A stretch of 62,803 nucleotides of DNA, filler included, from Globobulimina sp. (lineage: Eukaryota), in the NCBI GenBank assembly GCA_003354225.1. It is 42 parts of 42 records of this genome, joined end to end, with 100 filler letters (N's around TTAATTAATTAA, not from the genome) between each part and the next. Parts side by side here need not be neighbours in the genome. Positions count along the whole stretch, not along the records: positions 1 to 1,399 come from PIVH01017314.1; 41 more parts are not named here. The stretch is one strand, 5' to 3'. The position numbers and the translations under genes were made by a program. How positions within the stretch are numbered: position 1 is the stretch's first letter; the number at the start of each line of letters is the position of its first letter. This document shows, in pieces, positions 231 through 52,530 of this stretch. A model generated the notes under the pieces. It searched no databases, was not told where the DNA came from, and worked only from the letters and a program-made list of their open reading frames with translations.

Positions 231-496
231 ACTCATTGGACCTGTTCATCAACGACACAAAGAAGTGCTCAAGTGGCATTGGAACAAAGAAGAGAAGAAC
301 CACAAGTGGTCAGTAAGTAAATATATGTTACATAGATATACGTGTATAGTATCCGTAGTATCATATAGTCATTTTGTTTCATTATCATACAGTACCCATA
401 GTTATACCATTTCTGTCGTGTAAGGTTTGTGCTTTGTAAAAGACATCGCACATATTGATCATATATTCATTTATTGTCTTTAGCTTTCGTAAAGCA

Positions 497-806
497 CTTA
501 CAGTCCGGTTAGGGTGAATGCAAAGTAGCATAGACCCATTTAAGTACCGTATCAGTAGACTGTAAGCATACGTTACTAGCAAAAACAAGTCTAGTGTTAG
601 CAAGAAAATCATATTCATTCATTGTCATAAAAGTACTTACAGTCCGGTTTGGGGAACGATTGCCAAGTAGCATCGACCCGTTTAAGTACCGTATCAGTAG
701 ACTGTATTTTTTGGTATTTCTTTGTCATACAAGGTGTTTACAATCCGGTCAGGGTAGTGAGAGCAAAGTAGCTTCGACCCGTTTTCAGTGCCGTATAGAT
801 TGTAAA
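497..806 (+). ncRNA. Three tandem ~70-nt structured repeats (497-566, 638-706, 737-806)
   Basis: Each folds as nested stems ACAGTC/GACTGT, CGGT/ACCG, GGGT/ACCC, TGC/GCA with an AAGTA loop; copy 3 has compensatory changes. Confidence 0.7.
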
Positions 807-944
807 AGTAATCGATCCTTGTCATAAACTCCTAGTAAAAACAAATCTAGTAGTAGTTCATATCTTGCCTTTCAAAATTATTCACAGTCCTTTTTATTTT
901 CGATTTTTATTTTGTGTCTTTCATAAACCAAAAAACAAAAAGTC

Positions 945-4892: not shown

Positions 4893-5896
4893 TTACAAGC
4901 GCGAATACTGATGTTCCAACTGCGACAACCAGCTCACGATGGTTTGATGTCCGTTCTGCCACGCATGCTCGAGGCCGGTCTTATTCTCGTAATCCTTTTT
5001 GAAGATGTCCACCTTCACCACGTTGATCAAGTACTTGATGACGTTCTCGTGCCCGCCCATACACGCCAAGTGCAGCGGGGTCCACCCATTCACGCCGTCG
5101 CCGGCATTCACGAAGTCCACGATCTCCTGCGGGTTCTTGACATTCAGCAAGTGCTGGTACGCCAACTTGACAATCTCGGAGTGTCCCTGCATGGCCGCGC
5201 AGCCCAACGCGTTGAGCCCCGTCGTGTTGGCCTGCATCGGATCCGCGCCACTCTTCAACAACACGTCCACTATGCCGGCGTGCCCATTGTGCGCCGCCAT
5301 CATCAGCGGCGTGGTCCCGTCGCCACTCCGCGGCCGGTTCACGTCGGCATTGGCAGACAACAACAAATCCACGCTCATCTTCTTGCCGTTCTGGCACGCC
5401 ACAAACAGCGGCGTCGCGCCCTGCGACCGGTCCGGTTTATTCAAGTCTGCGCCATAATTGATGAGCGGCTCCATGCACTGAGAGTTGCCGCGCGAAGCCG
5501 CGATCCATAGCGGCGTACAGCCATCGTGTTTGGCCAAATTTGGGTTGGCCCCCTTCCGCTGCTGCGGTTTCTTGCTCTCCTTTTTCTTCTTTTTCTTCTC
5601 CTTTTTCCTGCGCGGATTGACGCGCTCATTCGTATTCTCCTCCAACTCCGACACGCTGTCCTCGCTGTTGTACGCCGCCCCGTTCATCGCCTCCATGCCG
5701 TCCATGGCCATGGCAGCCGCACTGTTCACGTCGAAGAGGCCCTCCTTATTGGTCAGCGACATGACGCGTTGGTGCCCGCTGCGAGGATCCGTCTGGATCT
5801 CCACCACCACGTTGCGAGGATGCAACAGCAACTCCACCACTTCGCTGTTGTTGTTCTGGCACGCGGCCCACAGCGCAGTCACTCCCGACAGGTCCT
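4893..5896 (-). CDS. Ankyrin repeat protein, 5'-truncated
   Basis: Repeated TPLxxAxxxG motifs (TPLWIAASRG, TPLFVACQNG, TPLMMAAHNGH, TPLHLACMGGH). Confidence 0.95.
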
Positions 5897-10393: not shown

Positions 10394-10497
10394 NNNNNNN
10401 NNNNNNNNNNNNNNNNNNNNNNNNNNNNNNNNNNNNNTTAATTAATTAANNNNNNNNNNNNNNNNNNNNNNNNNNNNNNNNNNNNNNNNNNNNTGGA

Positions 10498-10567
10498 TGT
10501 ACGCAACAGGAATTGAACCTGTATCATGGTTTAAATAAACCAGTGCTCTACGTTGAGCTATGCGTAC
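10498..10567 (-). ncRNA. tRNA-like element with non-canonical anticodon arm
   Basis: GTACGCA/TGCGTAC acceptor stem, GCTC/GAGC D stem, ACAGG-TTCAATT-CCTGT T arm; no canonical 5-bp stem plus 7-nt anticodon loop. Confidence 0.7.
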
Positions 10568-10984
10568 ATAATATTTGTTTTATTTTTATTTATCTATTTG
10601 CTTTGTTTTTTTTGTGGCATAAACCAACAACTTTATTCATCCATTCATATAAAAGTAAAATCCAAGGACATGTATCGACTAATACTTGAAGTGTCAGCTG
10701 ACATGATGTTGACATTTAGAAAAGTTAGATGTTGACATTACACTAAAAACTTCAAGCAACAAATTTTTTTGGTTAAATCAATTTGATCGATTAAATTAAA
10801 ATTTCAAAATAACAACATCCCAAAAATATAGAATCTTTATTGCAAAATGTTAATATCAATCAACAGATTCGATTGTTTTTGTTATTGCATATGTGCTAAT
10901 CAATAGCAATGCTTGTATATAAACAGCGCTTATTTACAATGTTTCATTTATGGTGTAATAATTATATATTGATACAAAGTTTGT

Positions 10985-20147: not shown

Positions 20148-20757
20148 GGGGTCTCCGATAAGTACTGATTTTTTTGGCTGTTTGAAAAGGTTTTTTTTTT
20201 CTGTACTGATCTTATCGAACTCAGCAATCGTCGCTACATCCGTGCCTCATCGTAATATATTGATGGTATTATTATTAGTTAATTAAACCACGTTTATTTC
20301 CAGTCCCATTAATCCATTTCAGTTATCCCATCATAAATTATTTAGGTTATGGTTGTGGTCGCTTAGCTCAAGTAGAGCACTGAATTAATATTGATTTATT
20401 TATTCAGCAGATTCAGGTTCAAATCCTGAGGCGACAGCTGCCCATCCCACTCATCTCAAATTTAAGTATGTTATTTTTGTGGATGATTGCTTTGAAAATA
20501 AATCACGAAATTATTTAAAATTAAAACACATTGTATTAAATTGATGATGCATATTATGGCTCTCAATTTGATTTATCGCTAATGGATGCGTTTCTGTCGT
20601 GGCATAATTGTGTCTGTCACACATATACTATATTTGATGGAGGACTTTGTGGAGGAACTACATTTAAACCAAACAATAGACTACTTTCAAATCAATAAAA
20701 TGATGACGCAAATTCGCAACAACTCAATCCATAAAATCAGTACTTATCGAAGACCCC
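20148..20757. mobile_element. 610-bp MITE (Tc1/mariner-like), 25-bp TIRs, TA target-site duplication
   Basis: TA|GGGGTCTCCGATAAGTACTGATTTT ... AAAATCAGTACTTATCGAAGACCCC|TA (1 mismatch); excision restores ...KNNNEWTQTAKL. Confidence 0.9.
20357..20437 (+). ncRNA. tRNA-like gene inside the MITE (could read as Ile-AAT with an 11-nt intron; G1xA72 mismatch)
   Basis: GGTCGCT-TA-GCTC-AAGTA-GAGC-A-CTGAA...TTCAG-CAGAT-TCAGG-TTCAAAT-CCTGA-GGCGACA; A and B boxes intact. Confidence 0.75.
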
Positions 20758-26973: not shown

Positions 26974-28371
26974 ATTTGAAAAATGTTATTTATGTTCGAG
27001 GCGATATGCGTGAATATGTTGATATTGTCGACGTTGATGAAAAACAGCAATCTCTTATTTTACAAGATATTGTTGATACAAATTTGCTATGTAAAGAAAA
27101 TACACATTTCTCGAATTGGATTATTATTCATCCACAACCCGGCTCATTACAGATTGAGTCAATTCTATTGGGATCATACTATAAATCACCAAATCTGACT
27201 TTGGCCATTCCTGACATTAAAATTTTGAGATATTTTATGAAATATATTTTGAAAACATATAAACAGAAGCAATGGTCACGTAATGTACTCATGCAAAGTA
27301 CGCGCAATATACAGACATTTCTGATTAGCGGCGATTTCAATATTAATAATGAGTTATTTTCGCGAATCGACTTTCGTAATTATAGCAAAATGGATCGCCT
27401 TGAATTTGATTGGCTGAATAATATCTTTGATCGTTATCAGATATCTTTGGTTAATACAAAACGAATACCCACGCATTGTAAAGGCAATATATTAGATTTA
27501 CATTTGATTTCTGCTAATTTGCTCTCTGACTTTGATAACTATGTTATTCGGCTTGTTAATAATACTCATTTGCGTACCAAACGTATCTCTGATCATTATG
27601 CGTTATTTACTATTATGAAATTGTCGCATTCTCATCATTGCCCCATTTTGCCTGATGGTGATAAATTGTTTCATGTTAATAATATTAATTATCGTTTCTA
27701 TAGACCGAAATCGTTGGATTTATATCGATTTCAATGTATAAAATTATTACAGAAATTGCAGCAACGAATGGATGATATTCAGTGTGGTTCGCAGTCGATA
27801 ATTGATGATATTTCTCATGATTTCTATTGTATAATACACAAAACAGCCACAAAGTACATAGGTAAAGTCCGCCATAATAAATATAAATACCGCCAACTTT
27901 GGTGTACAAATGAGATCATTGATAAAAGTGAGGCGCTGAAGACAACCAAACGTGATTGGTTGGCATGTAATGATCCCATTGAGAGACAAATCAAACATAT
28001 ACTATATAAAACACAGAAAAATAGGTTGAAGAATTTATGTTTGCGTGCAAAGAAAAGAAAATTAACGGAAAATATTAATCTTACCATTGATGGTAACCGT
28101 GATATCTATAAATCGATGCGTTATCTTCGGAAGATTGGCCATGTATTGCCACGAAAACATTATATTCCGTATATAATTGATACAAATCCGAATCGGTTTA
28201 TCCATGAACATCACACCAAAGCTAATCTATTTGCGCATAAATTTTGCCATCGTACATTATCTGATGTCCAATACCAATCACTGCGGACTTTGAAATTTAA
28301 GAATATTCCGTACTTTGATGACATTTATGAATGTACTGATGTAATGAAGAATATTTCAACCCATCTTCTTG
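26974..28371 (+). mobile_element. Non-LTR (LINE) ORF2 AP-endonuclease region
   Basis: GSYYKSP, GDFN, PTH...ILDL, SDH, then WCT and KANLFA linker typical before the RT domain. Confidence 0.9.
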
Positions 28372-32965: not shown

Positions 32966-34363
32966 GTGAATTCCATATTTTATAAGCTCTGTGCCAATCT
33001 GGATGGAGGCGCTATTCATTGCTATGGTGGAGCTGGCATATCCAGCATAGAACCAATTATTAGAAATGTTATGTTTGTTGGGAATCGTGCGGTGTATGAC
33101 GGCGGGGCAATTTATGCGACTGCGGAATGTAATTTTGACTGTAAATGGTGTGATTTTGCGCAGAATTCAGTGTCGCGCAGAGGCGGCGCAGTATTTTTAA
33201 ATTATAACAGCGATGTTTATTTTGAAAGTTCGCGATTTACAAACAACTATGCTTTGGATTCCGGCGGTTGTGTGGCGGTGCAAGAATTATCCAATGCTAC
33301 TTTTTATTGTGGAAAGTTTTTCAACAATTCGGCGCGATGGGAAGGCGGCTGTTTGTATGCCGGGCCTGGAAAAGATATACAAATTCATGATGCGGAACAT
33401 TTTCAAGGCTTTATTGTGTACGGCGACTCGTTCGAGTCTATATTTGACGGTAATTATTTAGTGAATCATGGCTATTATGATAAAGGTCAGCCTGATGTAT
33501 ATTTGTGGCCATTTACAGATTTTATATGGGAAACTGTAGATTGCGGAGGGTCTGGGGCCAAACCAACGGAACGACCCACATTGCCACCATCTGAACCTGT
33601 GCCATTGGTCTGTGACGGTGAAGCGAGAGCGGGTTTGTATGCCAACCAAGCTGTAGAGCTTGGCTTTAATTTAGATGTTGATAGGGGGACAGTGATAATT
33701 AGTTCGTGTCTGTCCAACTTTGAGACCTTATTAGAATTGCTTGATAACAATGGCAATGTCATAGCAGGCTCCATAGGTTGTGAGCTGTTGATTAGTGACT
33801 TAACTGCCGGGCAATATGTAATTAGAATTACTTCCGCCATACCAATATCAAATGGTATCTACCATGTATTCGTGTCATGCCCTGGTACCGATGTACCAGA
33901 GACAACTGGCACACCGGAAGTCATTTATGCGACCTGCGAAGATGTAAAATCAGGTGCATTTAATGGGGATGGTATAGAATTTGAATTTATTCAACCGGTG
34001 GCACGTACAACAACAGTGGTATTTAGTACCTGTAGATCAACGTTTGATACATATTTAATTCTACGCGAGAAGGATACCGGTGCAGTGATCCATGAGTGTG
34101 ATAACTGTGGCTTTGATTTTCTAGCCGGTGATTGTGGTTTTTGTTGTAATGGTGAAGCTCCGCAAGCATCTGAGATCGAGAAAATATTGAAGGAAGGGCG
34201 GTATTTAGTGACCTTCACCAGCGTCAATTCGGCACAACAAGCAGGACGCTATGTGGTTGAATTTATATGTTCGCCCATCACACCAGAACCAACTCGACCA
34301 AGTCGTGCGCCAACACCCAACACAGAATCGCCAACACCCAATAAAGAATCACCAACTCCCAAT
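32966..34363 (+). CDS. Surface protein with PMP/pectin-lyase-like GGA repeats, PPC-like domains and PT repeats, partial
   Basis: FxxNxAxxGGAI repeats; STC.S.FDTYL...G.Y domains twice; SPTPN repeats. Confidence 0.75.
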
Positions 34364-41235: not shown

Positions 41236-41310
41236 TGGAGGCGGCAACCAGATTCGAACTGGTGAATGGCGGTTTTGCAGACCGCTGCCTTACCACTTGG
41301 CTATGCCGCC
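41236..41310 (-). tRNA. tRNA-Cys(GCA), bacterial, CCA encoded
   Basis: GGCGGCATAGCCAAGTGGTAAGGC...CTGCAAA...GGTTCGAATC...GCCGCCTCCA. Confidence 0.95.
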
Positions 41311-41506
41311 TAAGGAACGGAAATTAAATAAATTGAACAGATTTCATTTCAGCTTCAGCTCAACAGTATTTGATCCTGTATTTTTAAAACCTCAAAATAG
41401 TTCACTATTAATTCAACTTTAAAAAAAATTCAGGGTCAAATACTGTTAAACCAAATCTGAACGAACTACATTCAAGTTGTTTTATTTACGTTCTCCCAAA
41501 AAAAAA

Positions 41507-41581
41507 TGCAGCCGGAAACGGGATTTGAACCTGCCACTCCGACCTTGGCAAGGTCGCACTCTACCACTGAGTTATTCCCGC
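41507..41581 (-). tRNA. tRNA-Gly(GCC), degenerate 3' half
   Basis: GCGGGAATAACTCAGTGGTAGAGTG-CGACC-TTGCCAA-GGTCG intact; G-G mismatch in acceptor, A-C in T stem, ends TGCA. Confidence 0.8.
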
Positions 41582-41645
41582 TCAGTAAGACCATTTAATT
41601 AGCTTCTTACAGTATATCTGTCAATAAAAAAAACGACGCACTCAC

Positions 41646-52463: not shown

Positions 52464-52530
52464 CTGTCGCCTCAGGATTTGAACCTGAATCTTCTGGATC
52501 AATGCAGTGCTCTGCTTGAGCTAAGCGACC
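52464..52530 (-). ncRNA. tRNA-like element, same family as 20357-20437, short anticodon arm
   Basis: GGTCGCTTAGCTCAAGCAGAGCACTG...AGATTCAGGTTCAAATCCTGAGGCGACAG. Confidence 0.75.

Follow-up and report, generated by a model that had tools for sequence, protein, structure and literature searches.

Are the three similar hairpins that lie in tandem ahead of an open reading frame, on one short contig of Globobulimina sp., an RNA structure maintained by selection, and in what kind of transcript would they then act? A preliminary description placed them in the leader of a putative retroelement and named packaging, an IRES or a ribozyme as possible roles, which are guesses. The window, i.e., the whole stretch of DNA that was analyzed (62,803 bases), consists of 42 separate contigs of 1396-1399 nt, which are ordered by size, range in GC content from 0.26 to 0.49 and are joined by 41 artificial linkers (N44-TTAATTAATTAA-N44, the first at 1400-1499), and features of the window are not readable across these linkers. 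The hairpin array sits in contig 1 (1-1399, GC 0.36), hence its native context ends at position 1399.

The spread in GC content suggests that the assembly is fragmentary and possibly mixed. ORFs of the UNC-93, MATH and M1-peptidase types are found among the other contigs, and the assembly looks eukaryotic because the UNC-93-like ORF is similar to eukaryotic clusters only. A Copia-type open frame of 466 codons occupies a whole contig (16488-17885, - strand) and harbors gag-pre-integrase, integrase core and retroviral SH3-like domains, and another open frame of 465 codons (26976-28370, + strand) is possibly a LINE fragment, with a weak Exo_endo_phos_2 (endonuclease-reverse transcriptase) match of 26.5 bits that falls below the cut-off of 27.4. 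A 466-codon open frame at 32966-34363 (+ strand) matches a Chlamydia polymorphic-membrane-protein repeat (E 1.1e-6), which is unusual beside eukaryote-like contigs, and an ankyrin-repeat ORF (4896-5894, - strand) lies on the most GC-rich contig (0.49), which possibly stems from another organism than contig 1. Five tRNA-model matches are located at 41236-41582 (-), 10494-10568 (-), 20357-20437 (+) and 52464-52530 (-); two of the tRNAs (Cys-GCA and Gly-GCC) are 200 nt apart, one was given a 2-base anticodon call by ARAGORN, and two on different contigs have identical first and last 20 nt, with scores barely over the Rfam threshold.

The tandem units and their common fold

A repeat search combined with alignment divides positions 470-812 (+ strand) into three tandem units at about 470-608, 609-718 and 719-812, the starts of which are spaced by 139 and 101 nt. 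The units are linked by the direct repeats 491-514, 630-653 and 731-754 (92% and 75% identity), as well as by 516-564 versus 658-706 (92%) and 630-683 versus 731-784 (76%); across the hairpin, unit 2 is 92% identical to unit 1, and unit 3, the most diverged, is 75-76% identical to both. The units are not repeats of a coding sequence, because neither spacing is a multiple of 3 and no reading frame is common to them. Each unit opens with (T/C)TTGTC, the TTGTC motif noted earlier in front of each copy being located at 475-479, 621-625 and 721-725, and additionally at 819-823 and 161-165. Unit 1 continues with hairpin 1 (497-566) and a spacer containing CTAG-N11-CTAG (577-595), unit 2 with hairpin 2 (636-708) and then a T6 run, and unit 3 with hairpin 3 (737-806). 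When a covariance model built from the three units (R1) was run over the whole window with filters off, the three units alone matched, at 470-572 (99.3 bits), 618-714 (110 bits) and 718-812 (99.3 bits), and the next best match in the window scored 15.9 bits (E 0.19).

Downstream of unit 3, the stretch 813-860 (+ strand) carries the unit-start motif CTTGTCATAAAC (818-829) and, directly after it, the CTAG spacer for a second time (833-851), both as direct repeats and without a hairpin. The exact 12-mer CTTGTCATAAAC occurs in two places on the + strand, the other being 160-171, upstream of the array. A second small hairpin had been proposed for the CTAG elements at about 575 and 832; they do form a true direct repeat (567-600 versus 823-856, 76%), but the hairpin is weak, with folds of -4.4 and -4.1 kcal/mol that 26/200 and 4/200 shuffles equaled in stability, and its pairing amounts to a 4-bp self-complementary tetramer only. 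A decayed remnant of a fourth unit follows at 874-895 (+ strand); it retains the 5' arm only (TTCACAGTCC), then becomes T-rich, and is 77% identical to 629-650 without giving a covariance-model match. An inverted repeat of 20 nt that flanks the array (426-445/915-934) was considered as a pair of terminal inverted repeats and rejected, as it is 80% complementary, of low complexity and one of 27 similar pairs.

The fold common to the three copies, as predicted by RNAalifold, is a four-helix rod of 22 pairs, which agrees with the single-sequence minimum free energy (MFE) structures of copies 1 and 2 and persists when positions 424-960 are folded as a whole. Its helices comprise 9, 4, 3 and 3+3 pairs, and its arms are unequal, with 25 nt on the 5' side versus 39 nt on the 3' side, where two 8-nt bulges hold nearly all unpaired residues. 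Three diverged tandem copies of about 70 nt with one four-stem fold, as originally described, are thus all present, and the AAGTA loop has been kept as well, since the apical hexaloop lies inside AAGTAGC, a string in and beside the loop that is invariant across the copies. Loop and bulges are conserved as well as the arms, and (A/C)AGUA(G/C) strings, which are single-stranded in the predicted fold, recur in the apical loop and in both 3' bulges of each hairpin.

The three copies differ in how closely they follow the common fold. Hairpin 1 (+ strand) forms 21 of the 22 common pairs, with large bulges that are all on the 3' side (AUUUAAGU and UAUCAGUA) and AAAGUA as its apical loop; its MFE is -24.3 kcal/mol (z -3.77), a stability reached by none of 200 shuffles. 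Hairpin 2 (+ strand) forms 20 of the 22, as its two basal pairs are unformed and the effective stem extends from 638 to 706; its MFE of -18.6 kcal/mol (z -1.20) was equaled by 17/200 shuffles and is close to the -17.7 kcal/mol of the common fold. In hairpin 3 (+ strand) all 22 pairs are formed; compared with copies 1 and 2, three of them are compensated and two are G.U wobbles, and there is a 4-nt deletion within the second 3' bulge, the first bulge being altered too. The common fold of copy 3 has -17.5 kcal/mol versus -22.0 kcal/mol for its own MFE structure, a gap of 4.5 kcal/mol, and the two differ in the inner part.

As an RNA family, the hairpin is unmatched in Rfam. Searching the window with Rfam 15 (4227 models) at the gathering threshold returned only the five tRNAs, all on other contigs, and the same search on positions 100-1000 with E up to 10 and lax filters gave nine weak matches, the best of those overlapping the array being ceN69 (17.7 bits, gathering threshold 45) and Zeta-pan (15.9 bits, gathering threshold 56.7). 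The Rfam comparison that the preliminary description had called for was thereby carried out and returned no family for the hairpins at either setting, and its statement that known ribozyme cores are lacking holds as well, as no ribozyme family appeared even at E up to 10. Over the array, miRNA, snoRNA, snRNA, Y, SRP and tRNA models likewise gave nothing near threshold at E up to 10. Several candidates were considered individually and set aside: a hammerhead or other small ribozyme (the rod is unbranched, without junction or pseudoknot), a miRNA precursor (no duplex runs uninterrupted for about 22 nt), a tRNA-derived SINE or tRNA-like structure (ARAGORN finds no tRNA in 1-1399, nor does Rfam at E up to 10), a 5' end like that of U1 snRNA (UACUUAC, lost in copy 3), an Sm-site (present after copy 2, missing from copies 1 and 3), and a C/D or H/ACA snoRNA (the boxes are absent). 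Among the papers listed by a literature search, none describes the hairpin motif.

Maintenance of pairing and further copies of the array

The substitutions reported for copy 3 are all seen in the alignment: a G-C pair becomes A-U in ACAGTC/GACTGT, a U-A pair becomes A-U in TGC/GCA, and a U-A pair becomes U.G in CGGT/GCCG. A third compensated pair is located at the base of the stem (C-G to U-A, columns 28/101). Altogether, 57 of 60 cells are paired, versus 32-43% in slid controls, in which the 3' partner is displaced by 1-3 columns, and the observed covariation was matched by 20/500 column shuffles, while R-scape-type covariation tests have no power at n = 3. Copies 1 and 3 differ at 12 of the 66 gap-free hairpin columns, 8 of which belong to the 44 paired columns, and in going from copy 1 to copy 3 no pair is broken and three are compensated by changes on both sides. 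In simulations with 12 random changes and a matched transition count (200,000 trials per starting copy), 0.14% of the trials from copy 1 had at least three compensations, 0.15% left every pair intact and 0.0035% did both (P about 3.5e-5); from copy 2, the combination of no broken pair with at least three compensated ones had P = 5e-5 (0.005%), values that apply to three paralogous copies and to a fold derived from the same three sequences.

As to the strand, the thermodynamics of folding gives no choice, since neither strand folds better than the other (z -4.6, -2.4 and -3.3 on the minus strand, versus -3.8, -1.2 and -3.5 on the + strand). The wobbles point in one direction: each of the three wobble cells is a G.U when read on the + strand, and the unpaired cells are G.A, C.U and U.U, with no A.C among them, the form in which a G.U of the opposite strand would appear. 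The sense (+) strand is therefore likely to be the RNA strand.

Further copies of the contig were found in one sequencing run, X1, which contains 0.56 of the sampled words of the contig, while two more runs from the same sample contain next to none; runs X2 and X3 gave no aligned contigs, and no RNA run is among those listed as containing the contig. At an identity of at least 80%, 84 contig pieces from run X1 align to contig 1, of which 63 are under 99% alike, and up to 13 X1 contigs cover one place. Parts of 424-611 have a summed depth of 97-163 and 753-799 one of 151, with 151-163 over the 3' halves of the hairpins, compared with 5.3 over 1082-1269; the reservation applies that summed contig depth is not copy number and that X1 is one sample, possibly the window's own source. 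Some X1 contigs skip units: joints from 611/613 to 723/724 replace hairpin 2 by about 33 other letters, one contig joins 456 to 638, and another leaves the array at 600 and continues into 177 unlike letters. From these variant contigs and unit-skipping joints, it follows that the hairpin unit belongs to a multi-copy family, the arrays of which vary in unit number. The replacement of about 33 nt has an 11-mer in common with window positions 411-425, and one of its three variants contains CTGTTTCA, which we take to be the nematode piRNA upstream motif, probably by coincidence.

The X1 variants also bear on the hairpins themselves. Between positions 482 and 773, 14 variant letters were classified, 9 of which are inside hairpins, with 4 in unpaired and 5 in paired columns; of the latter, one, at 773, breaks a pair, and with the other 4 a pair is retained or newly formed, in two cases as a + strand G.U. 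The selection on structure that had been suggested is in line with the retention of pairing through substitutions, as judged for three paralogues from the slid controls and the simulation, and the structure is real and, as + strand RNA within a repeated leader, probably under selection.

Two stretches upstream of the array have variants in run X1, too. The interval 142-282, in which the CTTGTCATAAAC 12-mer at 160-171 lies together with a (GTT)n run, is multi-copy in X1, with a summed depth of 24-58 and other copies that carry indels of 3, 6 and +7 nt. At 311-391, a short intron is possible (GTAAGT ... ATCATACAG); the depth in X1 corresponds here to about one copy or zero, and one variant contig is without 62 nt (joint from 320 to 383).

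Searches outside the sequencing runs added no relatives. A 17-nt pattern matched at least 120 metagenome and 26 viral loci, which were dismissed as chance after blastn of the contig against the 146 loci, since the alignments span 17-33 nt at the pattern and lie off it only in three cases (24 nt twice and 33 nt once); the pattern is too short to find true relatives in the metagenome collection. Longer gapped patterns of the unit gave no match in genome contigs and none in viral contigs. A relaxed pattern gave three genome-contig loci and no viral one, all three of which are missed by R1, and by a rough estimate this count is about that expected by chance.

The putative leader and the reading frame at 945

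The whole array lies within an ATG-poor stretch (392-944, + strand), which has 1 ATG versus 18 CAT. Mononucleotide shuffles of this stretch contain 10.2 ATG on average, with no more than one in 0/5000, and none of 328 control windows from both strands of the other 41 contigs has one ATG or fewer, the minimum being 2. Dinucleotide shuffles have a mean of 5.9 (P = 0.011), and the depletion stems partly from dinucleotide content and from the repeated, non-independent units, the two halves alone giving P = 0.13 and 0.12. The sole ATG of the stretch, at 518 in hairpin 1, opens a uORF of 15 codons that ends on TAA at 563-565 and is lacking in copies 2 and 3. With AUG lacking on the sense strand only, 392-944 looks like a scanned 5' UTR, and the earlier placement of the array ahead of the ORF at 945 fits a scanned leader with 1 ATG in 553 nt.

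The ORF itself (945-1399, + strand) comprises 151 codons, is cut by the contig end and is an orphan, with a charged, coiled-coil-like N-terminus that is followed by a Ser-rich stretch. Its GC content by codon position (0.447/0.362/0.298) has a gradient that fits a coding region. Compared with Pfam, the fragment gave nothing above cut-off (best 20.7 bits versus 28.8), and phmmer against 1.84 billion representative proteins gave no true homologue and a single spurious match, to a bacterial Ig/cadherin-repeat protein, in which one match of 30 residues is repeated seven times. In the ESM Atlas no family was obtained, the nearest cluster with a family being DUF1759 (0.78, a value that is often chance), and the PDB sequences returned coiled coils only (best E 0.13). 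Neither peptide patterns of the ORF in viral contigs nor tblastn against the other 41 contigs gave a match. The primer-binding site search used the 3' ends of the window's five tRNAs only and reached at best 9/12. The designation as a retroelement was hence not borne out, as the ORF is without a Pfam family or true homologue, no primer-binding site for the five tRNAs of the window was found, and the native context is 1399 nt.

Explanations of the array and known systems

The explanation that we favor, at a probability of roughly 0.45 and thus tentatively, is that the hairpins are + strand RNA modules in the AUG-poor leader of the mRNA of the ORF at 945, which would be part of a low-copy repeated, probably mobile eukaryotic element. 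The array region would be transcribed, tandem monomers of variable number would make up most of the long 5' leader, and translation would start at 945. A finding against this explanation is that the middle of the ORF (1082-1269) is at one-copy depth in run X1 and the hairpins are many-fold higher, so that the array family and the ORF may have nothing to do with each other. The array could then be an independent non-coding repeat, either satellite- or minisatellite-like or SINE- or MITE-like, which by chance lies upstream of an unrelated single-copy gene, and the monomer of which happens to carry an inverted repeat, the pairing serving its own propagation or being inherited with little function. 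Such a repeat would account for a summed depth of up to 163 over the hairpins versus 5.3 over the ORF middle, for the variable unit number and the X1 contig that departs from the array at 600 and goes on in other sequence, and for an ORF without mobile-element signature; the T6 at the end of copy 2 and the TCGAnnC string of copies 2 and 3, which presumably resembles a pol III B box, would suit it as well. Yet a T-run follows only one of the three units, Rfam at E up to 10 finds no likeness to tRNA, 7SL or 5S and ARAGORN no tRNA in contig 1, and the depletion of ATG on the + strand spans all 553 nt up to the ORF start. Moreover, the ORF is repeated as well, because its two ends have 2-3 variant contigs (depth 10-17; variants at 989-999 and 1304-1363). 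On balance, we regard an independent repeat as rather unlikely. A lower probability still is given to promoter or enhancer monomers acting at the DNA level; these would be tandem binding sites for transcription factors, as are the monomers of mouse L1 5' UTRs, and their dyad symmetry would result from the binding of a dimeric protein to DNA. Tandem units of variable number directly upstream of an ORF, each with a TATA-like CATAAAAG/CATACAAG string at its start and folding equally well on both strands, speak for this explanation, but a dyad bound by a protein would look different from this fold, in which 50-60 nt separate the arms, asymmetric 8-nt bulges break them up and all three nested helices have been preserved. 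Furthermore, the G.U bias of the + strand (3 cells and 2 variants versus 0 A.C) is not expected from DNA symmetry, and the ATG depletion argues that the stretch is within an mRNA.

Two further explanations take the hairpins for processed RNAs. If the array consisted of clustered precursors of small RNAs, whether miRNA-like, hairpin-siRNA or other processed ncRNA, the hairpins would be excised from a primary transcript, which their length of about 70 nt, their spacing of 100-140 nt and the conserved structure would allow; the unequal arms, the helices of only 3-9 pairs between two 8-nt 3' bulges, and a loop and bulges conserved like the arms speak against it, as does the lack of any miRNA, snoRNA, snRNA or Y-RNA family near threshold over the hairpins, which makes such a cluster improbable. 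It is hardly credible that every unit represents a new ribozyme which, by cutting itself, would process a multimeric transcript: tandem units with a conserved fold, conserved unpaired nucleotides and a conserved GUC, both in the TTGTC of the unit start and in the ACAGTC of the 5' arm, would be in keeping with it, but no hammerhead, HDV-like, twister, pistol, hatchet or other family was found at E up to 10 with lax filters, the rod has no multi-helix junction or predicted pseudoknot, and copy 3 has a second bulge short by 4 nt and a changed first bulge.

If the hairpins are indeed modules in the leader of the ORF-945 mRNA, each may be a repeated protein-docking site, most simply for the element's own coiled-coil ORF product. 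Multimerised docking is the simplest model because similar (A/C)AGUA(G/C) strings occur in the loop and in the bulges; it could serve RNP assembly, packaging or the control of scanning, and the number of units would tune this role. The element may be a LINE, an LTR element or another transposon, or a small host gene family might be concerned. A bolder version, which we consider quite doubtful, holds that the hairpins are an undescribed structured RNA module (for multimerised docking, packaging or export, and less likely for self-processing) in the leader of an unclassified mobile element with an orphan coiled-coil first ORF, unit number acting as a tunable dosage. Should the hairpins be RNA modules under selection, they would provide a compact case of about 70 nt with three natural variants in which compensatory changes are present; a repeated element would then build its leader through duplication of one structured unit, and a family missing from Rfam would be added. 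The practical value is limited, as the native context is 1.4 kb in a fragmentary assembly and structured or repeated leaders of mobile elements are a familiar theme.

Tandem monomers upstream of a coding region are known from mouse LINE-1 5' UTRs, where the A, Tf and Gf monomers have about 200 nt each. Like these arrays, the units here are tandem, of variable number and located directly upstream of a first ORF with an N-terminal coiled coil, while they differ in having 100-140 nt rather than about 200 and in that no LINE ORF1 or RT domain was found in the 1.4 kb; L1 monomers are not known to carry a conserved RNA hairpin each. Hammerhead ribozymes process the transcripts of satellites and retrozymes, which consist of tandem units of about 100-400 nt. 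The array resembles these repeats in combining tandem units with a conserved RNA fold, but it has no hammerhead core or Rfam match and folds into an unbranched rod. With polycistronic miRNA clusters, it has in common that hairpins of some 70 nt follow one another in tandem, about 100-140 nt apart, while the arms of 25 and 39 nt, the 8-nt bulges and the absence of a miRNA family near threshold set it apart.

Retroviruses and LTR elements have packaging and dimerisation leaders with multiple stem-loops, examples being MMTV (PMC8096270) and Ty1 (PMC3592414). They share with the locus a long structured leader between the start of the transcript and the first ORF, and stem-loops showing single-stranded purine-rich motifs, while the stem-loops here are tandem duplicates of one unit; no LTR or gag domain was found in the 1399 nt, and the primer-binding site search against five tRNAs stopped at 9/12. 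DINE-1 and other Helitron-related non-autonomous elements have tandem-repeat cores and stem-loops (PMC2374699), and the locus is similar in that it belongs to a dispersed family of repeats, which carry a variable tandem array inside and could form hairpins. It differs from them in that no Helitron termini or defining ends are found in 1.4 kb, that an ORF follows and that the ATG depletion points to an mRNA leader. As judged from its sequence alone, the array would work most like the repeated and structured leaders of mobile elements.
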